Below are positions 1 through 26,748 of a stretch of 64,000 bases of DNA, in pieces. Position numbers and translations under genes: made by a program. The stretch covers positions 1 to 64,000 of the forward strand of contig JAWOEX010000024.1 of assembly GCA_046482545.1 (NCBI GenBank), written 5' to 3'. Under the pieces are notes generated by a model. That model did no database searches, was not told the DNA's origin, and was given only the letters and a program-made list of their open reading frames with translations. The stretch is from Candidatus Thorarchaeota archaeon. Lineage in GTDB: Archaea; Asgardarchaeota; Thorarchaeia; Thorarchaeales; Thorarchaeaceae. Position 1 is the first letter of the stretch; each line of letters starts with the position of its first letter.

Positions 1-176
1 CCGGGTCAGGGCAGGAGACAGAAGCCGAGACCGAAGGAGGGACCGTGTCCTGATGATGGCGGTCAAAGCCCGTGCTTGGCCGGGGGTAGCGCTCCGGTAT
101 GGCGGCGACGCTGGGCAAGGAAAGGGTGGAACACAGGAGTTTCCTCAGTTGGGTTCACTCACTCAACTGTAAGAAA
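1..176 (+). repeat. Dispersed GC-rich structured non-coding repeat, copy 1 (cut by window start)
   Basis: Aligns by eye with 4520-4691 (about 23 mismatches plus a 4-nt indel over ~172 nt); conserved hairpins. Confidence 0.9.
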
Positions 177-180
177 CATG

Positions 181-1116
181 TTATCCAGAAAGCAACCGGA
201 CTTCTTCAAGTCCGATATATCCTGGTACAAGTAAGATACTGGCCACAAGGAATGGATTCTCGCTTTGCAGTCCCTTTTCTGCAAGAATACGAAAGTTGCG
301 TATAACTACATCATTTGAGGTTCCGGTTAGAGCTTTGTAGACTTGGGGTGTCTTTGCCTTCAAATCGAACTTGATTGTTCCACCGGTTTGAAGCACGATA
401 TCTGCTATTTCATCCAAGTACTTCTGTGAAATCTTGCCGTTGGTCTCATAACACACACGAACTTGATGACCTTGATTCAGTAACCGCGAGGTGGTTAGTG
501 AATGCTTTGCATTACAAGAAGGGTCTCCCCCGAAATAGCAGACGCAAGATGTCTTCTCATCAGCGACGGCAGTTAACTCTTGTGGTGACATGAGCGGGCT
601 TCCCTCAACCATCATCCTTCGATAGCTCGTATTCTGACAGAATAGGCAATCAGAATTACAGGACCCGTAGAATACTGCAAGGTTCTTGAGCCTAGAATTC
701 CAATGATAGCTACTATCATTTCTTACCGGGCAGACCCAATCGGCGACACAATTGGTAGGGATAGGATCAAAGTACCAGCGAACAATAGATTTCTCGCCAT
801 GTTTTTCGACGATTATACCGTCCTCCACCCGGCGAAGATGGCAGAATCCTGTCTCTCCCTCGTTCATCCTGCAGTGATTGGCGCATTCTTGACACACCAT
901 CTGGCCATCCGAGGGAATATTTTCCGGAAACCCTTGATTCCGCCGGATTTCTCTATGGTGTTCCATGCTGTGATCTATAGCGTTAGGAATCGTCGCGAGA
1001 CACTCTGGACAATAGCCTATCGATTGGGATACTATTCTGCTCTGATGGTTTGGGCATATCATCATATATCTGTTCTCGACTTGGTGGGATGAATCTTCCT
1101 TTTTCAGAACAACCAT
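181..1116 (-). CDS. Radical SAM protein, PFL-activating-enzyme-like (COG1180-like); probably C-terminally truncated
   Basis: CNSDCLFC (CxxxCxxC) motif, CYFGGDP, ETNG, KFDLKA; stops soon after LLVPGY..EEV, directly against the repeat. Confidence 0.8.
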   Translation of the reverse strand: MVVLKKEDSSHQVENRYMMICPNHQSRIVSQSIGYCPECLATIPNAIDHSMEHHREIRRNQGFPENIPSDGQMVCQECANHCRMNEGETGFCHLRRVEDGIIVEKHGEKSIVRWYFDPIPTNCVADWVCPVRNDSSYHWNSRLKNLAVFYGSCNSDCLFCQNTSYRRMMVEGSPLMSPQELTAVADEKTSCVCYFGGDPSCNAKHSLTTSRLLNQGHQVRVCYETNGKISQKYLDEIADIVLQTGGTIKFDLKAKTPQVYKALTGTSNDVVIRNFRILAEKGLQSENPFLVASILLVPGYIGLEEVRLLSG

Positions 1117-4005: not shown

Positions 4006-4282
4006 TGAATGCTACCTATCGTAAGAAATGCTGCTCTGAATCTTACCCCTCTTCAATCAAGAATAAACACATATCTGCCGCTACTCTCTACGAATAGGGC
4101 CTTTGAAGATCTTCACTTTCACCTCGATATCACTGAGATCATCAATCATTTTTGATTTCCGACTTGACTGCTGCTTCAGCCGCGAAACATACATTCGGGT
4201 GAACAAACGTGTCGCCTTCATAACACTGAGAGATTATCTGGGCAATATTAAGTCGTACGTTAACTATTGCCAACAACCTTCC

Positions 4283-4691
4283 ATTTGGCGCGTTCGGGAA
4301 AGGAAAAGTACCCATTCGAATGCAACAGCTGGATAGCCCTCTTGGTATCGCCAGTGAGGCCACTTTGTTTTGGTGTTTCAGCAGGCCCTGGAGAGTTCGC
4401 GGCTATTTGCTTTGTCCAACTGCACCTGCCCAGCTTTGGTGATGGGGCTGGAGAGAGCGATGATAACCCCGCCGTGGCAAAAGCTGTAGAAACACTTACT
4501 GCCTCCGGGGGTGATGTGTCCGGGTCAGGATAGGAGACAGAAGCCAGGACCGAGGGAGGGTACGTGTCCTGATGATGGCGGTCAAAGCCCTTGCTAGACC
4601 GGGGGTGGCGCCTCGGTGTGGCGGCGATACTGGGCAGGGGAAGGGTGGAATACAGAATTTTCCTTAGTTGTGTTCACTCAACTGTAAGAAA
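4283..4691 (+). repeat. GC-rich structured non-coding element, copy 2 (candidate ncRNA or non-autonomous mobile element); left boundary approximate
   Basis: 4520-4691 homologous to 1-176; further hairpins upstream (e.g. CCAGCTTT/GGGGCTGG); no credible CDS. Confidence 0.7.
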
Positions 4692-4760
4692 GGGGTTATA
4701 GCCAAGCTTTTATCATCTTGCTGGAAACTGGCTGATTATCTCCCCGGAGTGAAAAAGGAT

Positions 4761-8215: not shown

Positions 8216-8734
8216 ATGACTGAAGCATGGGGAACCCTCAAATCATTTGCAGGTAAGACCCTCGAAGCCCTCGACCCCGAATTCACTGAACATGTTTCCC
8301 GACTTATCGGGGGTCAAGACTTGACCGCTTGTTTCCAGTGTGCGAAGTGCAGTGCTGGGTGCCCAGTGAGTGATAAAGTGAATGTACAGATTCACGAAGT
8401 TATGCGAATGCTGGTCATTGGGCTGCCTGAAGTCCTTGATACCGACATGATTTGGCTGTGTACGACATGTTACACTTGCCAAGAACGTTGCCCGCAGGGA
8501 ATCGATATAACCGACATACTCTTCGGGCTGAAGAATATGGCATTCAAGAGAGACAAAGCCCCCCAGGGATATGTTAGTTCAAGACAGCAGCTCTATGATA
8601 CTGGAAAGCTCTATCAGCCAACTGATTGGGAACGAGAAGACCTAGGTTTGGAGGACGTACCTGACTTGGATTTAGATGAAACCAAGAAAATGTTTGAGAA
8701 AACTCGCTTGCTCAAACTAGAGGAGGATGAGTAG
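8216..8734 (+). CDS. hdrC: Heterodisulfide reductase subunit C (second copy)
   Basis: CFQCAKCSAGCP, WLCTTCYTCQERCP. Confidence 0.9.
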   Translation: MTEAWGTLKSFAGKTLEALDPEFTEHVSRLIGGQDLTACFQCAKCSAGCPVSDKVNVQIHEVMRMLVIGLPEVLDTDMIWLCTTCYTCQERCPQGIDITDILFGLKNMAFKRDKAPQGYVSSRQQLYDTGKLYQPTDWEREDLGLEDVPDLDLDETKKMFEKTRLLKLEEDE

Positions 8735-9611
8735 TATGGCTCACGAGTACGAGGTCTTTCTGGGCTGTTCCATTCCCAGTCGGTTCAACAACTATGAAGC
8801 GTCAATGCGTGTCATCGCCGACGAGCTGGATATTAAGCTCCTGGAATTTGACGGTGCATCATGTTGTGGAACTGTCGTTCTCAAGTCGATTGATGCACTT
8901 AGCTGGCTCTCAATGTCAGGACGGAACATCGCGATTGCAGAAAAACGAGGGCACAATATCGTCACTCCTTGCAATGGCTGTTTCGGTTCTCTAAAAGATG
9001 CAGACCACGTTCTGCAAGAGCACGAAGACCAGCGTGACAAACTCAATGAAATTCTCTCTGAAATCGGTTTAGAATATGAAGGCGATACGGCCATTCGCCA
9101 TTTTGTTGACGTCCTTTATGAGCTTAAGGATGAGATTGCGGATAGGATTGTAAACCCCCTTGATGGCCTCAAAATTGCTTTTCATCCGGGCTGTCATCTT
9201 ATACGCCCGTCTAACGTGGCAGAATTTGATGAGCCTGAGTTACCCCGTAAAGTTGACGAGTTGCTGGAACTTACGGGCGCTCGAAGTATTCCGTGGAACT
9301 TGAAGCTTAGATGCTGTGGCTCACCCTTGTTGATTTCCAGCGAGGAAGTAGCTACTGAGATTCTCAAAGAAAAGATGATTGACGCAATAGCCTCCGGCGC
9401 GAATTGTATAGTCACTAATTGTCCTGCATGTCATACACAGTTTGATGTGCAAGTGCTAGGTTTGGAAGACGATGATGGGAACTCCCTTGAATTGCCCGCA
9501 CTTTTTGTAACTCAAGTCCTCGGAGTCGCAATGGGTATCGATTCAAACAAACTCGGATTTGAATTGAACAGAGTCTCACTTGATCCTGTAGCAGATATTC
9601 TCGGCCTGTAG
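8727..9611 (+). CDS. hdrB: Heterodisulfide reductase subunit B (second copy)
   Basis: FLGC, CCG, PCNGC, HPGCH, CCG, NCPAC. Confidence 0.9.
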   Translation: MSSMAHEYEVFLGCSIPSRFNNYEASMRVIADELDIKLLEFDGASCCGTVVLKSIDALSWLSMSGRNIAIAEKRGHNIVTPCNGCFGSLKDADHVLQEHEDQRDKLNEILSEIGLEYEGDTAIRHFVDVLYELKDEIADRIVNPLDGLKIAFHPGCHLIRPSNVAEFDEPELPRKVDELLELTGARSIPWNLKLRCCGSPLLISSEEVATEILKEKMIDAIASGANCIVTNCPACHTQFDVQVLGLEDDDGNSLELPALFVTQVLGVAMGIDSNKLGFELNRVSLDPVADILGL

Positions 9612-11212: not shown

Positions 11213-14200
11213 TCACTCCCTCAACATTTCTTCAATCTGTTGCAAGAAGCTCTCTTCTCGCCACCAGCGTAGGTCCCGTGCACCTGTTGGACAGATTGCA
11301 CAACAAGCACCGCATCCTTCGCAGCGAAGTTCGTCAGTTCGGCTCTTCTTTACTCCAGGTTCTACTTCAACCATCGATACTGCATCGTATGGACATATTT
11401 CCGAGTAGTTACACAGATCGCAACCTACACACAGATCTTGGTCAACTTCTGCAACCAATAGCTCAATTTCCACCGTACCCAGATTCAATGGAGCACAGGC
11501 TGCACTTGCTGCTCCTCGTGCTTGGTTAATCGAATCTGCAACATTCTTCGCATAGGTTACACCCAAAAACACGCCAGGGATATTAGTCTCAACAGGCTTG
11601 AATTTCATGTGCATTTCTCTCAGGAATCCATCGGCTCCTCGGGTAATGCCTATCGCTTTCACTAGTTCATCCACATCATGAGGTGCTTCAAGGCCAACAG
11701 CTAGCACAACCATATCTGATTTGATTTTCAACGTTTTCTGTGATAATGTGTCATACATGGTGACAATTGCCCTTTCTCCGTCCTCAGTTGGCTCAACTTG
11801 CGGCGGATTTTCCCGCACCCATCGCAGATAGCTGACGCCTTTCTGCCTGTTCTCTCTCCACATCTCCTCCATTCCATTAGCGAATGGTCTGATGTGTTCC
11901 TTGTAGGCTGAGAATACCCTGATATCCGGGAACATTTCCTTCAGCTCGTTCTGCATGGCTATGACAGCAGAACAACAAACCCTGGAACAATATCTGTTTC
12001 CTTCACCCGGGCTCTGTCTTGATCCGACACAATGAATGAATATTGGATTCTTTGGCGGCTCTTCAAGCTCCCCATTCTTCAACATCCGTTCAAGTTCAAG
12101 GGTCGTTATTACCGCAGGAGTTTGTTCCCATCCATATTCACCGTCTTCAGGGTCATAGGTGTCTGTTCCTACGGCAATTACCATGGATCCTATCGTATGG
12201 CTAGTTCGTTCACCGTTCTGATTCTCCAGAGTGATTATATAGTTCCCATATGTTCCATCGCGAGCTACGGGTCTCGAGTTAAGAATCACTTCGATTCTAT
12301 CTTGTTCTTCAACCCTAGCTATCAGATTATCTACGATTTCCTGAGCGTCAACCATTTCTGGGAATAGCCTGTAGAGATCGTTGAGTCTTCCACCTAACCT
12401 ATCATTCTTCTCCACTAGGATGACATCAAAGCCTTTTCGTGCGACATCGAGTGCGGCAGTCATTCCAGACACTCCTCCTCCGACCACCATACAAACCGGT
12501 GTCACCTCGACTGTTTCAATAGGTACCTCTTCATTATTGATTGCCTTGGCCACGCCGCTTCGAATCATATCTTGGGCCTTTTCTTGACGCACTTCGGGGG
12601 GGTCATTTGCGTTAACCAGTGTGAGTTGCTCACGAAGTCCCACTGGACCAACTAGGTAGTACCCCGACAATCCTGCAGCTTCAAGTGCCGACCTGAAGGT
12701 GTCCTCGTGCTGCAATGGTGAACATGATCCTACTACGACTCTGTTTAGATTGTGTTCTTTGATGGCCTCAGTAATAAGCTCCTGACCTGGGTCACTGCAC
12801 ATGAAGATGTAGTCGGTACTATAGGCAACATTCGGCAAATCACCGGCCCAATCAGCCAATGCAGGCGAATCAATCACATCGCCGATAATTCCTCCACAAT
12901 GGCATATGAAGACCCCTACTCGGGGCTCATCGCCCACTTCAATTGGTGGTACTTTCTCTTGAGGCTCTGGTTCCGGTACTGGTAATATGGACTCTGCAGC
13001 CATCGCTGCTCCCTTGCCCTCATTTACTGTATCGGTTCCATCCTTTGGACCATGAATAGTACCAGCCATGAAAATACCTGGTCGGGTAGTTTCGAGTGCA
13101 GCTGAATTGGGATTTTTCTCTTTGACCCATCCAGTCGGTTCGAGTTCAATATCCAAAATCTGTGCGAGTTCCTTGTACCCTTCTGCCGGTCTGAAACTGG
13201 AATTCAAGACTACCATTTCAACACTCAGTTCCTGAATTTCTCCGGCCTCCGTATCCTCAATTTTGACCATCAGATTGTTTGTATCGGGGTCTTCATTGAT
13301 TTCCGCTGCGCGTCCCCGGATGAAGTTGATAGCTTGGTTGTGCTGGCTATCCCAAAGAAACTCTTCAAGGGCTTTTCCACAAGTCCTCAAATCCATGTAC
13401 GAGTAGTAAATCTTGCAGTGATCTTCCGGATAGTGCATACGGGTAACTTGAGCCAGCTTCAATCCAAATGAGCAACAGACTCGGTTACAGTGATTGCTAT
13501 ATCCCTGAATGTTTTCTCGCACATCTCTTGAACCAACACAATTGACGAAGAGAATAGATTCTGGTTCCTTACCATCCGATGGCCGTACCATATGTGCATC
13601 TGTTGGTCCGGTAGGATGTGTCTGTCTATCGTATTCTAATGTTGTGACAACATTAGGAAATACACCATACCCGTACTCCGCATAATCCGTAGGGACGTAT
13701 TCCTGAAAACCTGCTGCGTTGATAATTGCTCCCACATTCAAGTCATATTCCGTGTCTTCATCGTCGTAGATGATACAGTCTTGGGGGCAGACTCCTGCAC
13801 ATGTTCCGCACCCTATGCAGGCATCTTTGTCTATGGTGGCAACAAGCGGAATCTGTTGCGGAAAATTCATGTATATGGCTTTACGAAGTGAAAGTCCGCC
13901 ATCATATTCATTTGGGACCTCTACAGGACACGACTTGATACAGAGTCCGCATCCTGTACACTTGTCTTCATCTACATAACGAGCTTTCTTGTGTACTGTG
14001 ACGGTGAAATCCCCTGCTTCGCCCTCCACCTTTTTTACTTCAGATAAAGCATGAATCGTGATATTCGGGTGCTTTCCAACAAAGGATGTGAGTGGAGTCA
14101 TAACACAAGCAGAGCATTCCAATGCGGGAAAAATCTTGTAGATCGCCACATAAGCTCCACCGATATTAACCGTGCGCTCTATGAGATGAGCGTGATGTCC

Positions 14201-16441: not shown

Positions 16442-19084
16442 ATGAGGTTCCATGCCAAACGTGTGAACAAGTTCCTCTCCATAACCCTTGTGCTGACGCT
16501 GTTCTTCATGTCACTTCATGTTGTAACAGCTGCTGGTTCTGCTAACGATGAAGACACCATTTCAACACCTGAGTATATCATGGATTGTTATGATGGTGTC
16601 GGGTTTGCGGATAGACCTGGCGGCATATCCGACCTGCAATCGACCCTTGACGCTGTCACCCTCCTCATGGAAACCGAGGAGAAGTGGCCGTACGGTTTGT
16701 GGCATATGATCGAAAGCGTTGTGACACGCTACAAAAACATGCAATCCCCGTATCTTAACGGTTTTGTACAGGGTAATGTGTCTCGGGATCACCCTGATTT
16801 CCGCACAACTGCCCTTATTCTTGAGACACTTAAGGCATTGGGAAGACTAGATGCAGTTGACCTTGAAAGAGTTAGACGGTATCTGAAGGCTAGTTTCCAT
16901 GAGTCCCTTACCATGGATCTCTGGCTCACAGAGGGCGATTTCGACCAAAAGTACTGGGCACTCAGGACGGCTGCCGCGATAAATAATGTTGAGATTTTGG
17001 GTATCAAGAAGATAGATTTGGGGCGGATTATCGGTCCTGATGCGAACAGGGCTGACTTCCCGGAAGACGAAACCTACCTACGATGGGGTGAGGAACATTT
17101 TGAGGGGAGTATCTACGGAGGGTTCTCCGAGGAGCCGGAAGATAAGCAGTTCAAGATAATCGACTCGTTCAGCATGATGCTCAAGGAAAAGGACTATGCG
17201 AGAACTATCGCACCTCTTTTGGTGGATTCAGAGGCATTTGTTGATGACATCCTTGAGGGTCTGGCTCAGGAAAGTGCTATCATCGAGAATAGTAACGGTG
17301 AGAAGAATCTCCGCCGGACAGCAAGAGTATATGACATACTCAACAAGACAGGATTGTTGGACAAACCCTTCAGTGATGGGACAGGTGCATACAGAGCAGT
17401 ACATACACACGATTATCTAACACAGGCAAAGGCAAACCTCCGAGGTGGTTTCAGCGACAGGACAACCTCACTTTCTGACCTCCTGTATATCCAAATCCTA
17501 CAAGAAGTGCTTGACAGAGCTATCAATAGCAGGGCCGCGGTATTTTCTCCAGTGTTCTCAGACTCAAACGGAGCCATCCTTGCGAGTGGTGACGAGGCAT
17601 CTGAAACCTTGACAACAGGCATAGAAGAATGGAGTGTGGATTATGATGATATCGTTTATGTTCCCGAAATACTGTTGGAGAATCAAACATCGAAAGACAA
17701 CAACCCTTCACCACTCCCGTTCTTGATTCTGATGTGTTCGCTCATTGGCAGCGTGATAGCATCAGGAGTGCTGGGTGAAAGGAACCTTACAATTTTCCTC
17801 TCGATATGCCTCATTATCCTGTTCGTGGTCCAAACAGGGTTCAGTGTAGATCAAGTTCTCAGGGATGTATCCGCCTTCGTGTCTGAATCATTCTCTAAAG
17901 CTCAACAAACACAACTGGAAGATTCGCTTGGAAACAGTATGCTCTCTATTGGAACACAGTGGCTTGACCTAGACTATTCGGGGCCATCAGAACCAAACGA
18001 GGACCACCAGTTAGAAGAAGACACTCCAGAAACGATGCCTAAACAAATGACCCCCGCAACAGTCAAGGCTTTAGACTCAATAGAGGTCGAAGTTGATATT
18101 CGTCTGGAGATATATCCAAATCTCATAAGGTTAGCAAAAAAACTTTCGAATCTGTTTATCCAAACCGATGATGGAAGATATGATCCAAATATGGTTTGGG
18201 ACATGATAAATACTAAAATCAAAGAAACCGAAAGCTCTACCATTACATTTGGAGAGGGGAATGATATGGTAAGTATGAGTGGTGAAGCAGTCAGGGATTT
18301 TCTAAGTTTTGTAGAAGGATATGAGGAAGTTAGAATACGGGACATATTGGCAGTGCTTGAGAGAGTAGCGAATATTGAATTACAGGGAGAAGAACCTGTA
18401 CTCATCCGGAATCTAGCTCATGATATGAGTAAGAACACCGCAAGAAATCTGGATGGTCTGTTGATGTTGCTAGAGGCTATCGAGGACGGAATAGGCTCCT
18501 TAGGTGACAGTGGTGTGACTGTTGAAATTATATATAACGAGAATGCCATGAAAGAAATTAATGCGATGGTTAAAAAAATCCATGGTGTTTTTCCCCTTGA
18601 TAACAAACAACGTAAGGATATTAGAGAACTAGGATTCCGCATTCATGCGCGTATGGAGGCCGCAGACCTATGTGGTGACAAGACGAATCTTCTAATAAGA
18701 ATCGAAAGAGAAGAGGGATCATACCAAATTATCCGCGACAGCTGGGGTATGGAGATACTTCGACAATGTCTTCCGCAGGGAGATTCTATCGCAAACACAT
18801 TACTACAGAATTATGGAAATAATATCTATGAAATTCTCGGGGAACAAATTCCGTTTCATTTGCAACTAGGTGATACAACCTATACCTATGCTTGGATGTA
18901 TTCCGCAGCCGCTATGCTAAAAGATATTGAGCAAGACCCACGTGTTGATTATTCAGCACGATTATCTTTTGGTAATCTTGAATTGCCGGATATTATACGA
19001 GATGCATTGGACATCGTGATAGATGATATAGCGTCGGATGAAGTGAGGAGAAATTGGGAATCACCCTTCCTTCAAGGGGGGTGA
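16442..19084 (+). CDS. Secreted/membrane protein with prenyltransferase/squalene-oxidase-repeat-like N-terminus and two TM helices; probable N-terminal part of a giant protein
   Basis: Signal-like N-terminus, GFADRPGG..DLQSTLDAV and PDFRTT..LETLKALG repeats, hydrophobic segments ~aa 425-470. Confidence 0.65.
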   Translation: MRFHAKRVNKFLSITLVLTLFFMSLHVVTAAGSANDEDTISTPEYIMDCYDGVGFADRPGGISDLQSTLDAVTLLMETEEKWPYGLWHMIESVVTRYKNMQSPYLNGFVQGNVSRDHPDFRTTALILETLKALGRLDAVDLERVRRYLKASFHESLTMDLWLTEGDFDQKYWALRTAAAINNVEILGIKKIDLGRIIGPDANRADFPEDETYLRWGEEHFEGSIYGGFSEEPEDKQFKIIDSFSMMLKEKDYARTIAPLLVDSEAFVDDILEGLAQESAIIENSNGEKNLRRTARVYDILNKTGLLDKPFSDGTGAYRAVHTHDYLTQAKANLRGGFSDRTTSLSDLLYIQILQEVLDRAINSRAAVFSPVFSDSNGAILASGDEASETLTTGIEEWSVDYDDIVYVPEILLENQTSKDNNPSPLPFLILMCSLIGSVIASGVLGERNLTIFLSICLIILFVVQTGFSVDQVLRDVSAFVSESFSKAQQTQLEDSLGNSMLSIGTQWLDLDYSGPSEPNEDHQLEEDTPETMPKQMTPATVKALDSIEVEVDIRLEIYPNLIRLAKKLSNLFIQTDDGRYDPNMVWDMINTKIKETESSTITFGEGNDMVSMSGEAVRDFLSFVEGYEEVRIRDILAVLERVANIELQGEEPVLIRNLAHDMSKNTARNLDGLLMLLEAIEDGIGSLGDSGVTVEIIYNENAMKEINAMVKKIHGVFPLDNKQRKDIRELGFRIHARMEAADLCGDKTNLLIRIEREEGSYQIIRDSWGMEILRQCLPQGDSIANTLLQNYGNNIYEILGEQIPFHLQLGDTTYTYAWMYSAAAMLKDIEQDPRVDYSARLSFGNLELPDIIRDALDIVIDDIASDEVRRNWESPFLQGG

Positions 19085-22000
19085 ATCCTCTACTTGTTTC
19101 ATGTAAACAAACGGGAGAACAAATAGAATCAAATAATATTGAATCCCATGGTTTCGTATGTTCATATGGTCTAAAGGGTGACAAGATTAAAATTGGTATG
19201 CGATTCTACGATAATGGTAGGTATACAAAGGGGTATGACAAATCCGTACGGGAACTTAAAGTACAAAGAAACGATGTATCCTTGAAGGATGTTCTTGATT
19301 CTGCTTCAACTAAAGGATATGCGTCACCAAGTATCTATACTATTGTACAAGGAGAAAAGAAGATTCCCGCAGTTTTCACTCTTAGCGAAATCAATATTGA
19401 TGGAAGTCAGATTGATTTGAATGCCTTGGTGGGTCGGAAATACAGCCAACTCAGAAAACAGGTGACGGATGGTAAGATACCTTCTGGGATTTTGGTGTGG
19501 CTATCAACTAACGGTATAATTAAAGAAGGATCTACAGGAAGACTGGAACCTAATGACGATTTTATTATTGAGTATATCGACAAATATTCCAAAAATAAGA
19601 TTACAAATCTACCGGAAGGTATAAAGAAAATTGAGGATGTGGCGGGAGGACCGTTTAGTTACGACGATAGTGTAGAGTTGGACATCAATTTGGAAGAAGA
19701 AACATTGAGAAGGATTGCAACAAAAACGATTGGACATTCACAAAACAAGCCTGAATTTAAGCGGGTACATGTCTGTAATGACTGGGGTGGTACAGTAGAC
19801 CTAATGTCACAGGGTTCTGCCGATAGACGCACTAATTCATACATGGCGAAGTTATATGATTTTTTGGAATATCTAAGACAAAACAAAGGTAAAACATTGG
19901 AAACAAAAACCGAAAAAGTGTATCAAACATTAACGAGAACACTCATTGAATCACGACCAAAGGGTATAGACAATTATCGAATTGCTAGAGGAAAAGACTC
20001 TTTTCTTCATTCAAATGAATTATTAAATACCCGAGATGAAATTGTCTTTTCTTTAATGGCACTTGGTAATGCCATACCCGGAATGGCATATGATAACATG
20101 GAGATTAGGCATGTTCTGCCAGCACTGGCGGGGGTGAAGCTTAACGCCGATGATTCACTAATAGGCCCGGAGTGGGATTCGGTAATAGATAAAATGAAGA
20201 AATGGGCTCCAGGTGCCTACGCAGATGTAATGTCATCACTCTATGGTGGGGCCAAAACGACTAGAACAGGTACTCGGTCACAACTTCTACTTCAAGAAGC
20301 TCCAATAGATCACAATCTCAAGGTACGTTCATGGGTAATTGGTGATGAGATATATGTACAGGTCGTTGACCACTACTATGTATCTGGGAAAAAAGGTGAT
20401 AATCTCCTCATGGCAGGGGGTGTGGAGGCTCTTGATGGTTTTTCTTTGCAATGTGTCTTTGATGCTTCGAAGATAGAGAGATTATACCTCAAAATATTCC
20501 AAGATTGCGCTTCTTTGAATACATGGATGAATCCTATGTCCCTTAGTGATTGTCAGAACGCAGGTAATAGAATATACTTGCCCCATATAGTTGCATTGGA
20601 TCCTAACATGCAGTACAGAATTGCACTAGAAGTTGTTGCTGGTAACATGGACAGAGAAGAACTATCCGAGTTAGGAGATATCATATATCAAATAATGATG
20701 CGTGTAAATGATTATACGAAAAAGGATATCATAATGGAGGAATTGGGAAAAGAATTTAGCACCGAAAAAAAAGGATGGCATCTACATCATAATGAACCTG
20801 TGTATACGGTAGATGGGCGGGAATTCGTAGGCTATCTGAGAGGGATGACAAAAGATGCATATGAGCTTGCTGCTGTGAAGCTGAAGATACAAATGTTGGA
20901 TGCCGCAATTAGGTCAGGCAAAATTGCTCCTTCTAAAATGGAAGAAACTATGGAACACATAGAGGGCTTGGCCTATGAAGCTATTCAGAGAGAAAGAGTA
21001 CTAAAGTCATATTACGAATCTAACAAAAAGAAATTCGAGGCAGTACAGGGTAGCAAGGGAGGAGATAAGCGAATCAAAATAGGAAATAAGCTTCTTTGGA
21101 ATTTCTATGGTCAAAATGACATTGTTGCACAGAACGCGTTTATTGCCATTAAAGTTATAGCTGATACTGATATTAGTGAAATGGTTTACTTAGAAGATAT
21201 AAACGGCAAACCATTGAACAGAATGGGCAGTTATATCGAACATCCACAAGGAATACATTCGCGTAATCAACTGAAAGGTCATATGGGTCTTGTGACCCAC
21301 TTCAAGCCTGCCGCAGCAAAAATGGTGGGAAGGACCACGATGTTCAGAGGGTATGATATAAGGCACATAGATGAAGGTGATGATAACAAAGACTACCGTC
21401 TTGGGGCATTTAAAGATGATAAACTGGAATATTATGTGGATTGGAGTGTAACAGATACAACTATGCATACTACTGGAAGGCGTTCCAAATACAATGTTGA
21501 AATCGATGGAGTAGTTAGCTACGATTCTCGGTTCCTATTTACCGTGAAGGAACCGATTTCAGAAAACACAATTTGTGGTTTCGAGTTCTATGTATTTGCT
21601 CAATCGCACCAGGCTGGAGGTTGGCACCCTGACTCGATTAATTACGAGTATTTGAAAAACACACCTGCTGGTCTCTTCAGTATATTGATGGATAAAGGCG
21701 GTGCGGCTATGGGAGTATCCCGTCAACCTGCAATCATGACTGAGGGGGGTTTCGAATTACATTCAAGAAATTGGAAAGCACAGAAAGTGAAGAGTCTAGG
21801 TAATATCAAATTCTTCTCGGTAAATTCGATAAGCGAACTATTCGATGCGGGTATTGTTGAAAAGATGGAACTCTGGAAACATATAGTTGAACACTCCAGA
21901 CTCAATCCGGGACCTTACACTTCTGGTGTTGATATTGACCTCCTTCACTCTTGGATTTCATGGTACAGGAATCGCTACGATGACAGTCCCCACCTATTCA

Positions 22001-25000
22001 CACGGAACATCCCAGTACAAGTGGAACAATTCGACACTCTTGGTATCCAAGAAGATCTGCAATCCTCAATAGCATCATGGTTTGCCGAATTACTTCACAA
22101 CGATAGCATGTCTGATACCCTGAAAGAAATCAAGCTTCAATCTGTTGCATACAAACACATGGGCCTAGAAGAGCTCTGTGATGACTGGGCATATCCACCG
22201 TATCAAATTGCAGAATGGCGCTACACCGGCATGGACGAGAAGGCGTGGTACACAGTCGGTGACAAGTCCCAAGCCCTCTACACGGCACGATTCGGAACAA
22301 CCGACATTACTCAGACCGTCAACATAGACATCGAACCAGACCGAACCATGAAGGTTGACAAGATCCAGCTGTTCCTCACAGAGCTGGGCGATATCTACAA
22401 CAATACCGTAGAGTTTCGTGTCGAGGTATCAGACGGTAGTGATGTAGTCACCGGCAGCACGATACTCACAAAGGAAGGCGCAGTTGACATCCCTCTGGAC
22501 AGACAGCTTGAGGTTTCCGATGGTGACACCCTCTACGTTACCATACCCATACAGGATACAACCGGCCGAACGTGGCTCTTTGACAGCAATATGCTCAGCA
22601 GACTGTACAAGAAACGTGCCGGACAGTTCGAGGTAGATGGAAGAGAGCTACCGGGTCACTCCATGTACGTTTCTATCCATGATGCTGAGAAGGCATCGAT
22701 CATCGGTTGGCAGAAGACCGGCACCCGGTTCGAGACCGGCATAGATGATGATGTAAACATGCTCATCGGCGATGGAATAAACTTCCTGAACGCACACTTC
22801 ACAAGCTACCCAGAGGATAAACTCCCCCGGACAATCATCGCAGCAACCAATTTCGACTCGGAGACCAACACGACCTACATCAAGTATGAGGAGTACAAGT
22901 ACGAAGAGACACAGATCTACAGCGATATTCCTGGTAACCGGGCAAAGGAGACACCTATCTACGTCTACGGCAAAGAACTCCCTGTTGATTACATCGGTGC
23001 CGGCCTGAGCATTTCTGGCTACCCGAATGTCAAGAGCATCTCCCATTCACGCGTCATCGAACTAGTCTATGGCGGTGAACCGGGCGTCCTTGTCATAAAT
23101 ACCGAGATGATACCCTCACAACTGCTCGCAGTAAACGACAAAGGCATACCCAAGTTACGTGAATGGATTAACGCTGGCAACCAAGTGGTCTCGGCAGGTG
23201 TCTTACCCTTCTCAGAGACCATCGTCAACGGTGAACTCCACAACACCTACGATTTCCTGTTCCACACAGAGACATCAACCGTTGGAACCGACCGACTTGT
23301 AGAATTATCATATCAGGACGAAGCCGCAGCCGTCTGGTCTGACCCGATTCAAACCTACCAGTGTGAGAACCCGGGAGAGGCCAACGAGACTCATGTCTTG
23401 GACCTTGATGGTGAAAACGACGACTGGATATCCCTCAGCGGTAACAAGCGCAACGAGGATGGAAGTGTCACCTTTGTCTTCGCGATGGCACTCGATGACA
23501 TAAATGGCACATCAAAACAGTACCAGACCTTTGACCTGTTTGTTGATGGCATACCGATATTCTCCAACTTCGCAACAGATCAACTCTGCTATCTTGATGG
23601 TGGTCTCGATGCTGGCTCAAAGGTATTCTATGATGAATACATGAACAACCGGATGTTCGTACAGCATATAGAGAACGTGCCACGATCAACAACCAGTGAT
23701 GTGGTCTATCCCAATTACCTCTGTTACCTGACAGTACGTGAATCACTCAATGCCGGTCCGCATACGGTCACCATCGCAGACAATCCTGATAACAAGGGCT
23801 CACAAGAACTGCGGATCCTTGACCTGAACAATATCCTTGCCTACGAGTACAAGCATCACAAGGAGACCCTGCTTGCTATCGAATCACAGTATCAGGGCAT
23901 GCCGGAAATCGGTGCGGGTGTCTATGCTGTTACAGGCAAGGATATGGTGAGATGGAGCGAAGATGTGGGCCGAGAATCCTTCACCATGCAGAGTATGGTG
24001 GGCCTTGAACCAACCCGAACCGTCCTAGGTGTTGACCTCTCAGAAGCTCATCCGTACCGCACCTATGCAAAGGACATCACCAACAGCTACGGTGAGTGCT
24101 CGGTAAAGGTGGGTGCAGGAATGTTCACGATGCTTGACCTCTATACCTACGGTCTTGACTCGTACTGGCATACCCTTGCAGAGCTCAACTATGTCCTGAC
24201 AGGCGTGGTTGCCGACTGGTATAAGATGCACGACCAAGACACCGAGACCGACTTTTCACCGGGAGCAGGTGATGATTTCGAAGGCTTGCTTGTGGATGTG
24301 GGTGTTCCGTCTATTTCAGAAAACGTTCCGGGTGGCCTTGTTCCAGAACAGGATGCCAAGGCCAACGGCACATACGCCAATTCATTCGAGGAAACCGAGC
24401 CCTTGGAAACAACCAATGCTGACCTTGTATGGGATGATGGGCGTCTCTTGGTCAACTCGACAACGCAAGATACCTTCTCAGTTGACCTTGACACAGCGGT
24501 GGAAGGCTACGACTATCTCATGTTCGATATCTCCATGTTCAACTGTACGGTTTCACTCAATTCCACACAGGTCTTGGGCGAAGCTCAACCCGGACTCAAT
24601 ATCCTCAAGCTCCCCGAAGGACCGTACGATAACATCACTCTCGTAGCAACAAGGAACACAGGAAGTGCTTCTGGGTGGTTCAGGATCGAATGGATCTCTA
24701 CTTCTGAAGTGCCTGCCCTTGCTGGACCTTCGCAACTCTACATCCAGCAATTCACAACCAGCACCAACCTTACAACTACAGGTTTCGAAGATGATACACT
24801 CACAATTGCAGATGGCAACATGATACTCACGCACGGTCATGATGGCGACTCGGAAGACAATGATTCTGTCCACTTCAACCTCGCCGAACCAGTACATGGT
24901 GCTGGCCTGCTGCTCGACATGAAGCACCACATCAACACAACAAGTACAACAGGTGTGGAGCTTCAGGCAACACTCTACTCTCAAGCAAGCCGGGAGGGCA

Positions 25001-26748
25001 ATCAACAGACCATCTCTCTAGATATGGCCACGACAAGTATAATCGACAGGAATTCTCTCACGCTTGAAACAGTATCCTCTATCGAACTTAGCGTGGTATC
25101 TCAGATCTCCTCCTTGCCGCTCAACTGGACTGTTGATTATCTTGAGATCGTAGAGGATGGTGACGTGGCTCTGGATACTGTGTCGCCGTTATACACTGAA
25201 ACTACTGGTGCCGTGGAAACCATAACGGATGAAACCCTGACCATACGCAGCGATGGAACAACAACCGCAGAGGTTTACATCCCTGATATCGAATTCGACC
25301 TTGGTTTGTATCCCTACACCCATGTGAGAGTATCAAACCTGAATCTGACAAGTGCCAGTATCAGGCTCTGTACCTCAAACGGTAACTACACCCACATCAT
25401 CACTGATAACGAAACGACCGTGTTCACAGATGATGTGGATTCAGGAACGATTGTATCAGGCATCACGTTACTTGTCGGTTCTGATGGTCTCAATAGGACC
25501 ATGACCATAGACGACCTTGTGTTCTCTCCCATACAGGAGCCGATAGACGAACGTGTAAGTGTCCAACTGGAATATTCTACACAGAACGGTGACACCCTCA
25601 TAACCCTGGATGATTATCTCATGGACTGGGGTACGGGTACGCTCGCACTTTCCAATGATACCGAATCTGTTACGCGTGCGGAAACACAGATTGTGGAGTG
25701 GAATACCGAGTACATAGCACTCAGGCAAGATGTTGTCAACAGGAACGTCTCCGTCAATGCCGTATTCCACTTTGATGGCATCGTTGATGTCTCGGTTACA
25801 AGCGCGGACTATGGCATGACCTTTGCGCTCAACAAAAAAGCCACCAAGTACTCTGACTCCTTTGGTGTTATGCCCAACAACGTAACAGAGGAAATCCTGC
25901 GCTCACCAACCTTTGCCGCTTTGTACAGCTATGGCATAGGCTTTGGTGTTACAGGAATCAGTACAGAGCAGGTATCGGCATTCGTGGGCCAATCATCCTT
26001 TACCGTCAGTGCTATGGCAAACGAGAGTATCATGCTCCTGCCGGTACTGGCAGAGCGGTTCGAGCTCATCGATGGCGTGGAGATAGATCCCAACTTCGTT
26101 GTCGATTTCGAGGACATCGACATCACAGGCCTTCTGGACAACTGGGATGGCACCCTTGAGAGTCTTGATGTGGCTTACTGGCACGGGGCCTTCAAGGAGA
26201 ATTACGCACTAAAGCAGACCTTTCTGGATACGTCATACTGGATAGTGGATAACACTGGCCATGACATGACCACTGATGAGGCCCTTGACAAGACCAAGAT
26301 GGGTTGCACGAACGGCAAGATGAACATCACAGTCAATGCAAACCAGTCTGCTCTTGCAGAGACCGTTGTATTGAACCTCAACTATCTCTCTATCGATTCC
26401 TCTGCGTTCCCGTTCATGCGCCTTGTGCTTGACGGCACAGGCCACATATCCGTGTCTGTAAAACTCAATCTCACGGATGGCACAACATCTCACATCTTCC
26501 ATGTCACAAGCATCACACCAGAGGAACCAACAAGCGATGAGCGCAACCTCTACGTCCAGCTTATCGATGATGGTTGTGGCTACGAAGAATGGACCATTCA
26601 AGGCATCGAACTGTGGATGAATGAAACTGATACAAGCACGGTTATGAACAAGTCACGCGTCTCGCTCTCGTTTTCGAGGGATAAGCCGCTCGTTCTTATG
26701 TCAAGCTTCGGGGAGCTTGTGCTTGCCCCACGGGTGGTGAGGAGATGA
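19054..26748 (+). CDS. Very large hypothetical protein (2564 aa): AT-rich basic N-terminal region, acidic T/S-rich beta-type surface-protein-like region, PCNA-like C-terminal ~31 aa
   Basis: Uninterrupted 7.7 kb ORF; overlaps the upstream ORF in the -1 frame at a G6 tract. Confidence 0.75.
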   Translation: MGITLPSRGVNPLLVSCKQTGEQIESNNIESHGFVCSYGLKGDKIKIGMRFYDNGRYTKGYDKSVRELKVQRNDVSLKDVLDSASTKGYASPSIYTIVQGEKKIPAVFTLSEINIDGSQIDLNALVGRKYSQLRKQVTDGKIPSGILVWLSTNGIIKEGSTGRLEPNDDFIIEYIDKYSKNKITNLPEGIKKIEDVAGGPFSYDDSVELDINLEEETLRRIATKTIGHSQNKPEFKRVHVCNDWGGTVDLMSQGSADRRTNSYMAKLYDFLEYLRQNKGKTLETKTEKVYQTLTRTLIESRPKGIDNYRIARGKDSFLHSNELLNTRDEIVFSLMALGNAIPGMAYDNMEIRHVLPALAGVKLNADDSLIGPEWDSVIDKMKKWAPGAYADVMSSLYGGAKTTRTGTRSQLLLQEAPIDHNLKVRSWVIGDEIYVQVVDHYYVSGKKGDNLLMAGGVEALDGFSLQCVFDASKIERLYLKIFQDCASLNTWMNPMSLSDCQNAGNRIYLPHIVALDPNMQYRIALEVVAGNMDREELSELGDIIYQIMMRVNDYTKKDIIMEELGKEFSTEKKGWHLHHNEPVYTVDGREFVGYLRGMTKDAYELAAVKLKIQMLDAAIRSGKIAPSKMEETMEHIEGLAYEAIQRERVLKSYYESNKKKFEAVQGSKGGDKRIKIGNKLLWNFYGQNDIVAQNAFIAIKVIADTDISEMVYLEDINGKPLNRMGSYIEHPQGIHSRNQLKGHMGLVTHFKPAAAKMVGRTTMFRGYDIRHIDEGDDNKDYRLGAFKDDKLEYYVDWSVTDTTMHTTGRRSKYNVEIDGVVSYDSRFLFTVKEPISENTICGFEFYVFAQSHQAGGWHPDSINYEYLKNTPAGLFSILMDKGGAAMGVSRQPAIMTEGGFELHSRNWKAQKVKSLGNIKFFSVNSISELFDAGIVEKMELWKHIVEHSRLNPGPYTSGVDIDLLHSWISWYRNRYDDSPHLFTRNIPVQVEQFDTLGIQEDLQSSIASWFAELLHNDSMSDTLKEIKLQSVAYKHMGLEELCDDWAYPPYQIAEWRYTGMDEKAWYTVGDKSQALYTARFGTTDITQTVNIDIEPDRTMKVDKIQLFLTELGDIYNNTVEFRVEVSDGSDVVTGSTILTKEGAVDIPLDRQLEVSDGDTLYVTIPIQDTTGRTWLFDSNMLSRLYKKRAGQFEVDGRELPGHSMYVSIHDAEKASIIGWQKTGTRFETGIDDDVNMLIGDGINFLNAHFTSYPEDKLPRTIIAATNFDSETNTTYIKYEEYKYEETQIYSDIPGNRAKETPIYVYGKELPVDYIGAGLSISGYPNVKSISHSRVIELVYGGEPGVLVINTEMIPSQLLAVNDKGIPKLREWINAGNQVVSAGVLPFSETIVNGELHNTYDFLFHTETSTVGTDRLVELSYQDEAAAVWSDPIQTYQCENPGEANETHVLDLDGENDDWISLSGNKRNEDGSVTFVFAMALDDINGTSKQYQTFDLFVDGIPIFSNFATDQLCYLDGGLDAGSKVFYDEYMNNRMFVQHIENVPRSTTSDVVYPNYLCYLTVRESLNAGPHTVTIADNPDNKGSQELRILDLNNILAYEYKHHKETLLAIESQYQGMPEIGAGVYAVTGKDMVRWSEDVGRESFTMQSMVGLEPTRTVLGVDLSEAHPYRTYAKDITNSYGECSVKVGAGMFTMLDLYTYGLDSYWHTLAELNYVLTGVVADWYKMHDQDTETDFSPGAGDDFEGLLVDVGVPSISENVPGGLVPEQDAKANGTYANSFEETEPLETTNADLVWDDGRLLVNSTTQDTFSVDLDTAVEGYDYLMFDISMFNCTVSLNSTQVLGEAQPGLNILKLPEGPYDNITLVATRNTGSASGWFRIEWISTSEVPALAGPSQLYIQQFTTSTNLTTTGFEDDTLTIADGNMILTHGHDGDSEDNDSVHFNLAEPVHGAGLLLDMKHHINTTSTTGVELQATLYSQASREGNQQTISLDMATTSIIDRNSLTLETVSSIELSVVSQISSLPLNWTVDYLEIVEDGDVALDTVSPLYTETTGAVETITDETLTIRSDGTTTAEVYIPDIEFDLGLYPYTHVRVSNLNLTSASIRLCTSNGNYTHIITDNETTVFTDDVDSGTIVSGITLLVGSDGLNRTMTIDDLVFSPIQEPIDERVSVQLEYSTQNGDTLITLDDYLMDWGTGTLALSNDTESVTRAETQIVEWNTEYIALRQDVVNRNVSVNAVFHFDGIVDVSVTSADYGMTFALNKKATKYSDSFGVMPNNVTEEILRSPTFAALYSYGIGFGVTGISTEQVSAFVGQSSFTVSAMANESIMLLPVLAERFELIDGVEIDPNFVVDFEDIDITGLLDNWDGTLESLDVAYWHGAFKENYALKQTFLDTSYWIVDNTGHDMTTDEALDKTKMGCTNGKMNITVNANQSALAETVVLNLNYLSIDSSAFPFMRLVLDGTGHISVSVKLNLTDGTTSHIFHVTSITPEEPTSDERNLYVQLIDDGCGYEEWTIQGIELWMNETDTSTVMNKSRVSLSFSRDKPLVLMSSFGELVLAPRVVRR

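Follow-up and report, generated by a model that had tools for sequence, protein, structure and literature searches.

A Thorarchaeota aCas1-TnpB transposon, its covarying omega-RNA and its gene-less derivatives, probably moved by a giant Cas1-like protein

The window, that is, the whole 64,000-nucleotide stretch of the Candidatus Thorarchaeota contig JAWOEX010000024.1 analysed here, contains two copies of a repeated element (copies 1 and 2), and both are the 3' part of a TnpB omega-RNA joined to the right end of a transposon (Table 1). The RNA and its parent are almost certainly those of an aCas1-TnpB transposon. We further propose, with a probability of roughly 0.7, that the window copies are gene-less derivatives of this Thorarchaeota transposon, that they are moved by a giant protein encoded in the parent elements, and that the RNA guides TnpB; the transposition chemistry and the expression included in this proposal are deduced from sequence comparisons. 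A previous, sequence-only reading of this DNA had pointed to a mobile element that is non-autonomous and contains a structured RNA, and had guessed at a relative of omega-RNA, correctly on both counts. It had also considered the element undescribed, a view superseded by its derivation from the aCas1-TnpB loci already reported from computational work in PMC10691335.

Table 1. Features of the two element copies in the window
Feature	Position	Strand	Remark
Copy 1, comprising the 3' part of the omega-RNA scaffold and the right element end	1..183	+	5' side cut by contig start
Subterminal TGTAAGA box of copy 1	168-174	+	
Radical SAM gene truncated by copy 1	181..1116	-	311 aa left
Right junction hexamer of copy 1, TCCAGA	184..189	+	TCNNGA type
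Left copy of the duplicated target ATAGCC	4333..4338	+	single in empty sites
5' part (37 nt) of the copy 2 insertion	4339..4375	+	no clear homolog
Copy 2, comprising the 3' three quarters of the TnpB omega-RNA scaffold (∼430 nt) and the right element end	4376..4699	+	
Decayed tnpB tail frame overlapped by copy 2	4378-4530	+	recognisable tail peptide still readable
Multibranch domain, consensus helices 7-10	4397..4477	+	many two-sided changes
Pseudoknot 5' strand, ATAACCCC	4463..4470	+	
Large domain, helices 12-17	4484..4655	+	closed by long-range helix 4484-4488/4651-4655
Terminal hairpin	4660..4691	+	variable arm 4660-4671; GTTCACTCA 4672-4680; TGTAAGA end box 4683-4689
Pseudoknot 3' strand, GGGGTTAT	4692..4699	+	last eight bases of the element; inferred scaffold end
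Right copy of the duplicated target ATAGCC	4698..4703	+	from empty-site comparison
Host flank, would-be guide if copy 2 is transcribed	4700..4719	+	putative; same sequence as the empty site upstream of hdrA

Copy 2 is a 360-bp insertion (4339-4698) located ∼60 nt upstream of an hdrA-mvhD fusion gene. The insertion is not present at the orthologous locus of two congeneric genomes (G001 and G002), where window position 4338 is joined straight to 4698 and ATAGCC occurs once, not twice, and this empty locus therefore identifies copy 2 as an insertion. Homology to the other copies begins at ∼4376 and ends sharply at 4699. The element start had previously been set at 4283; as positions 4283-4338 are host DNA in the empty sites of G001 and G002, neither the proposed helix ACAGCT/AGCTGT (ACAGCT at 4325) nor the bracket at 4265 and 4697 is part of the element, the real duplication being ATAGCC. 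The 37-nt head of copy 2 takes the place of the left end together with the first ∼110 nt of the RNA, and may possibly have arisen by a local inversion. This head is collinear in length with the segment of the element that it replaces and contains complement-like motifs (AGTGAG, TTTGTTT). Lacking both a left end and the 5' quarter of the RNA, copy 2 is most likely an immobile relic; its 8-bp pseudoknot is perfect, yet several other pairs are broken. Elsewhere in the window, two neighbouring open reading frames of 880 and 2564 aa (16442-26748), almost without Pfam assignment, are unrelated to the element.

Copy 1 interrupts a radical SAM gene whose intact open frame measures 384 aa in two congeners. 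The missing C-terminal part of this gene is found at C14:23995-24213, beside the left end of another element, whose left junction (C14:24187) carries a TCCAGA matching that of copy 1 and which is now joined to a different right flank. The distribution of the two gene halves over two contigs (window 184-1116; G000 C14:24187-24756) reflects either inter-copy recombination or a chimeric assembly, and this rearrangement may also account for other mismatched hexamers. The two window copies, previously said to be ∼87% identical over 1-176 and 4520-4691, share 149 of 172 aligned positions (86.6%), and both do end in GTAAGAAA-N4-TTAT.

The element is multicopy, as had been suspected. A 324-position model gave 85 matches in the genome, and an HMM built on the full miniature had 107 hits, which together cover 34 kb (about 1.1% of the genome) and fall into 32 full copies, 43 copies with an intact 3' end, 24 5'-only copies and 8 internal fragments. 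The genome thus contains 32 gene-less miniatures, about 75 fragments and two complete parents. Most copies are gene-less miniatures of ∼550-590 bp (∼560 bp), and the 32 full ones keep both ends and the entire RNA. Empty orthologous sites were found for copy 2, two miniatures and one complete parent, and some copies are chimeras resulting from recombination or misassembly. Retroposition was rejected as the origin of the 5'-truncated copies, since no reverse transcriptase was found and most of them show no duplication at the 5' edge. At G000 C20:181316-182444, C41:25041-25600 and C28:231783-232128, elements are inserted back to back, beside or into each other's ends. Of 60 family genomes, 39 contain the omega-RNA, whose common boundaries span ∼400 nt, and a scan for the RNA end motif returned almost only Ca. 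Thorarchaeota and archaeal MAG records.

The omega-RNA follows each of six TnpB genes (PF07282) in the genome, and these six TnpB open reading frames extend 100-154 codons past RuvC-III into the RNA. The longer, TnpB-linked copies whose existence had been envisaged are therefore real, and two of the parents are complete (8.2-8.3 kb; C28:133390-141692 and C20:228522-236754). Their ends are those of the miniatures, with matching hexamers at both ends of each parent, and their open reading frame maps show tnpB, a divergent giant gene (1410-1655 aa), a ∼210-aa frame and nothing else. The order is left end, giant gene, divergent tnpB with its 3' tail overlapping the ∼430-nt omega-RNA, and right end; the small frames belong to no family and have 3 close homologs only. 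The orthologous site of the C28 parent is empty in G001, a genome that has a copy at 83% identity elsewhere. The earlier description of the element as non-coding fails as to a wholly non-coding origin, given the overlap with the tnpB 3' tail and the tail peptide that is still readable. A bridge RNA of IS110 type, also envisaged, does not fit, as no DEDD recombinase gene is linked and the gene content of longer copies is limited to tnpB and the giant gene. The C20 parent is composite (L010:7345-8755), its left ∼500 bp matching the C28-type left end and giant-gene tail before a different giant gene follows, and in G001 C133 the same ends and tnpB type accompany yet another giant gene.

With respect to its catalytic residues, this TnpB retains the aspartates of RuvC-I and RuvC-III, while the RuvC-II glutamate is replaced by glycine and a substitute glutamate is found before the zinc finger, the same rearrangement pattern as described for the rearranged group RIIr-5 in PMC10691335. 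Because the D-E-D site of the rearranged type is kept, TnpB looks, from its sequence, like an active nuclease and not like a dead targeting module. Two TnpB groups occur beside the giant gene. Members of the second group (L282-L290, L049, L061) measure ∼700-760 aa, with a canonical RuvC-II and a short tail, and at their loci the giant gene often converges with a gene for an IS607-type serine recombinase.

To characterize the RNA, 41 copies from 13 genomes were aligned (67% mean column identity). The + strand consensus comprises 90 pairs, 68 of which show changes on both sides. The alignment energy of -84 for the + strand, compared with -45 for the antisense strand and -10.6 ± 3 for column-shuffled alignments, and the 95.9% of paired cells, compared with 36-44% with slid partners, place the structure-preserving + strand changes announced by the sequence-only reading far beyond chance, with a significance that is overstated because the shuffle and slide controls ignore relatedness. 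A copy folded singly is not remarkable (z -0.31 for the window copy). Among the individual helices proposed from the window alone, CCAGCTTT/GGGGCTGG and the subterminal hairpin are supported by the consensus, the hairpin at 4599-4616 is retained weakly (2 consensus pairs), and the GGTC helix is upheld with GACC at 4548 as its partner; TCAGGATA/TGTCCTGA and AGGGGA/TTTCCT are absent, those strands taking other partners.

In addition, the last eight bases of the element form a pseudoknot with the multibranch domain, a helix that nested folding programs cannot add. Among its 68 distinct combinations, the pairs covary across subfamilies: one position appears as T-A (34), A-T (8) and C-G (6) and the neighbouring one as A-T (36) and C-G (6), and the pairing as observed was reached in 0 of 5000 shuffles. 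At ∼430 nt, the RNA is roughly twice the usual omega-RNA size. A search of Rfam at gathering and permissive thresholds, which had been proposed beforehand, gave no match to a curated model at the gathering score (best E 3), and the family may simply not be curated. A group I/II intron or IStron was rejected, in view of the lack of an Rfam hit and of an element that does not end in G. Overall, the overlap with the 3' end of tnpB on the same strand, the + strand covariation, and the pseudoknot at the right end followed by a variable flank are the features that identify the RNA as a TnpB omega-RNA.

By analogy with other TnpBs (PMC10055086), the guide would correspond to the host 3' flank, the scaffold ending at GGTTAT. 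The argument for the 3' flank, and against an internal hypervariable stretch, is that the covarying pseudoknot reaches the last bases of the element; this places the scaffold end ∼30-40 nt further 3' than the variable stretch, and the flank sequence is variable beyond the hexamer. That the guide is instead the internal stretch between the conserved T and GTTCACTCA, as conjectured in PMC10691335, appears unlikely. The stretch is indeed variable (82 variants), lies 3' of the most conserved helix and marks the point where family-wide DNA matches fade. However, the pseudoknot is situated 3' of it, and the stretch pairs more strongly with the bases downstream of it in the same element (-8.9 kcal/mol) than with the corresponding bases of other elements (-6.2 kcal/mol), 41% of the self-pairings beating nine tenths of the crosses. 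Moreover, neither the internal stretch nor the bases after GTTCAC yielded convincing targets, or any beyond chance, in the genome or at their own loci. In one subfamily, a near-constant ∼12-nt sequence directly follows the pseudoknot in many genomes (L001, L054, L122, L129, L137, L149, L153, L154, L163, L184, L188, L189, L195, L207, L209 and, twice, L213), and the guide or target of that subfamily would therefore be fixed.

Each end of the element carries one of a pair of inverted boxes (TYTTACA/TGTAAGA), set 8-10 nt inward from a hexamer. Two additional inverted boxes, at a spacing of 11 bp, are present at the left end, whose terminal bases are not conserved. Together with the duplicated hexamer, these boxes take the place of the IS200/605-type ends that had been postulated. 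The junction hexamer is TCNNGA in 26 of 27 paired cases, it occurs at both junctions of filled sites and once in empty sites, and the two hexamers are identical in 17 of the 32 full miniatures (nine different hexamers); ATAGCC of copy 2 does not fit this motif. When each copy was compared with its nearest neighbour by left-end sequence, the left NN was shared in 64% of cases (16% after shuffling) and the right NN in 45% (14%), and for nearest neighbours by right-end sequence the NN was shared in 33% (13%). Sister copies have no flank bases in common beyond the hexamer. Plain duplication is expected to be blind to ancestry, and the tracking of lineage by NN therefore suggests that the core undergoes a homology check, most simply via a circular intermediate; a lineage-specific target preference or gene conversion are possible sources of the same link. 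No clear TAM was seen upstream of the targets, where a purine bias at -3 (24 of 27, never T) was the sole feature. This bias could reflect a weak TAM or a preference of the integrase, and the filled right junction carries T at -3.

Several observations on related elements concern tRNA genes. A subfamily combining the giant gene and TnpB at tRNA-Gly(TCC) forms tandem arrays whose boundaries are ∼42-47-bp repeats of the 3' half of the tRNA (L050:6185-6231 and 12898-12944; L052:3837, 10541, 13654; L053:4239, 10976, 14142; L011:8429-8503), which are much longer than the 6-bp duplication of the elements of this genome. Other elements of this composition adjoin tRNA-Lys, -His or -Ala, and an element of G001 (L047:5816-5855 and 13314-13353) lies between tRNA-Ala and a diverged repeat of its 3' half in inverted orientation. 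Four to five spaced TCAGTGGAAGG-like boxes are found beside tRNA-Gly (L011:397-415 and 8524-8903; L050:12987-13306; L053:3941-4192); in G000 C23, an inverted partner of 19 nt is located at a distance of 8.5 kb. These boxes may belong to the ends of a larger element enclosing the tRNA.

The giant protein (1400-1960 aa) has four homologs in this genome, which are 24-28% identical to the first. Its gene was detected in 26 of the 36 host-family genomes and in none of the 24 from outside this family; in most of the loci fetched it is arranged head to head with a TnpB, and the protein family counts 206 representatives among 1.8 billion proteins. Searches of Pfam, NCBIfam, PADLOC, PDB sequences and ESM Atlas features left the protein unassigned, profile HMMs (PF01867 included) detected no Cas1 in it, and Foldseek and the Atlas shape search recovered the RecA-like domain alone. 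In an AlphaFold model of 1000 residues (pLDDT 84), the best matches of residues 6-242 are Cas1 catalytic domains and the casposase of M. mazei, which make up the top eight rows (Z 13.1 to 10.4; best Cas1 Z 13.1, rmsd 3.4, 178 aligned; casposase Z 10.5), for a mostly helical domain in which Z near 13 is at the edge of chance. Casposons are reportedly due to Krupovic et al. 2014. Residues E101, H174, D181, D184 and R187 are invariant in the giant family, an order which we take to follow the E-H-D site of Cas1. Residues 300-575 match Cas4 best (Z 7.7, a middling value), followed by AddA, MGME1 and RecB, with nuclease motif residues invariant in 58 sequences, and residues 598-887 match RecA/KaiC folds. 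The model thus predicts a Cas1/casposase-like catalytic domain, a Cas4/RecB-like nuclease and a degenerate RecA-like domain. In the 98.9% complete genome, PF00589, PF00239, PF00078 and PF01867 (tyrosine and serine recombinases, reverse transcriptase and canonical Cas1) had no match.

We propose a model in which the giant protein would bind the end boxes and move parents and miniatures in trans, with a Cas1-type strand transfer at TCNNGA and with a circle containing one hexamer as the probable intermediate, such that targets would tend to share the central dinucleotide of the donor. The + strand RNA would load a TnpB supplied in trans, the guide would be formed by the ∼20 nt of host flank that follow GGTTAT, and cleavage of empty alleles by TnpB would favour retention of the element, as for IS200/IS605 TnpB. 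Movement by the giant protein is the probable part of this model, and a donor-matched core obtained through a circle is a tentative one, with the odds somewhat against it. Equally conjectural, and on balance doubtful, is the stronger version in which the giant Cas1-fold protein is a polymerase-free transposase acting like a site-specific recombinase, producing a TCNNGA-bearing circle that integrates at a matching dinucleotide, the filled site being guarded by TnpB and the 430-nt RNA. If true, this would represent a new chemistry for the Cas1 family, within one mobile unit in which Cas1-like, Cas4-like and Cas12-ancestor parts are already combined.

The same RNA and parent could alternatively be moved by an IS607-type serine recombinase, acting in trans or now lost, with the giant gene as cargo. 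A symmetric site whose 2-bp core follows the donor is characteristic of serine recombinases, and the arms here are symmetric about an NN that tracks element lineage; furthermore, the 11-bp spacing of the left-end boxes resembles the helically phased end motifs of IS607, and in relatives, 10 loci have a serine recombinase next to the giant gene. All ten of these loci, however, carry the other TnpB group (∼720 aa, short tail) and none carries the present one, a search for PF00239 found nothing in the three genomes of this genus or in the five from genera g2 and g7, which contain TCNNGA miniatures as well, and IS607 elements, which consist of a serine TnpA and a TnpB and have phased end motifs, use a GG core and make no duplication (PMC6188088). 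We consequently regard this scenario as distinctly improbable.

The inherited NN would also be explained if TnpB and its guide helped to choose the insertion site in a CAST-like manner, the guide seed CNNGA carrying the NN of the donor into its progeny. The guide would start exactly at CNNGA and TnpB is tightly linked to the giant gene, but guide-directed site choice is not seen in the sister copies, whose flanks share nothing beyond the hexamer, and the D-E-D site is that of an active-looking nuclease, which makes this possibility very unlikely. Still less credible is that these are ordinary PATE-like miniatures of the IS200/IS605 type, moved by the single Y1 TnpA of the genome, with the giant gene as a mere neighbour. 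Y1 transposases use end hairpins and TAM/TEM pairing and are not known to duplicate their targets, whereas the empty sites show duplication; in addition, no element end is found at the Y1 locus, and the ends of the parents enclose the giant gene. Besides the presence of that Y1 TnpA, the existence of omega-RNA-bearing PATEs (PMC10055086) speaks for this scenario.

Among known systems, the element belongs to the Asgard aCas1-TnpB loci described computationally, as Cas1H-Asgard-1/-2, by Altae-Tran et al. 2023 (PMC10691335). Common features are the Asgard host, a diverged Cas1-like gene next to tnpB, repeats at the flanks and, downstream of tnpB, the conserved T followed by a variable stretch and GTTCACTCA (window 4659-4680). 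Ends, target motif, miniatures and RNA structure, which the main text of that paper does not give, are supplied by the present genome. As in IS200/IS605 omega-RNAs and PATEs, where TnpB takes its guide from the flank (PMC10055086), the RNA overlaps the tnpB 3' end, reaches the right end and is kept in gene-less copies; unlike in these systems, the end boxes are inverted, a hexamer is duplicated, the parents contain no Y1 TnpA and the RNA has no Rfam match. Casposons (6OPM, PMC6977970) resemble the element in having a Cas1-fold catalytic domain, here a modelled one, as the only candidate integrase, and in their inverted end motifs and duplicated target, and related Thorarchaeota copies are located at tRNA 3' ends, as casposons are. 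The element differs from them by the absence of PolB from either complete parent, a 6-bp duplication instead of the 14-15 bp of casposase (PMC6977970), short imperfect inverted boxes, an integrase fused in a 1400-1960-aa protein with predicted Cas4-like and RecA-like domains, TnpB, and miniatures. With IS607 it shares short phased motifs near the ends, loosely conserved terminal bases and a dinucleotide core; unlike IS607, no serine recombinase was found in the genome or genus, the NN within TC..GA is variable and six bases are duplicated. Membership was accordingly rejected for casposons (no PolB, 6-bp duplication), IS200/IS605 (no TnpA, duplication) and IS607 (no recombinase, TCNNGA).

No publication joining Thorarchaeota and TnpB was found, and a single one joining aCas1 and Asgard; some of the details given here may be contained in the supplement of PMC10691335 or in Makarova 2020. 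The covarying pseudoknot at the last bases of the element, the TCNNGA at both junctions that is single in empty sites, and the tracking of lineage by NN were not found in the literature examined. The RNA itself is of a known kind, a TnpB omega-RNA. Asgard aCas1 proteins, reportedly going back to Makarova et al. 2020, have so far been transposases by computational prediction, and this genome supplies exact ends, a 6-bp target rule, empty sites, two complete parents and dozens of natural mini-substrates, along with a scaffold boundary as a basis for reprogramming the TnpB. Taken together, these results bear on how Cas1 integrases and Cas12 ancestors joined, and they show miniatures that break genes and take part in rearrangements in Thorarchaeota.
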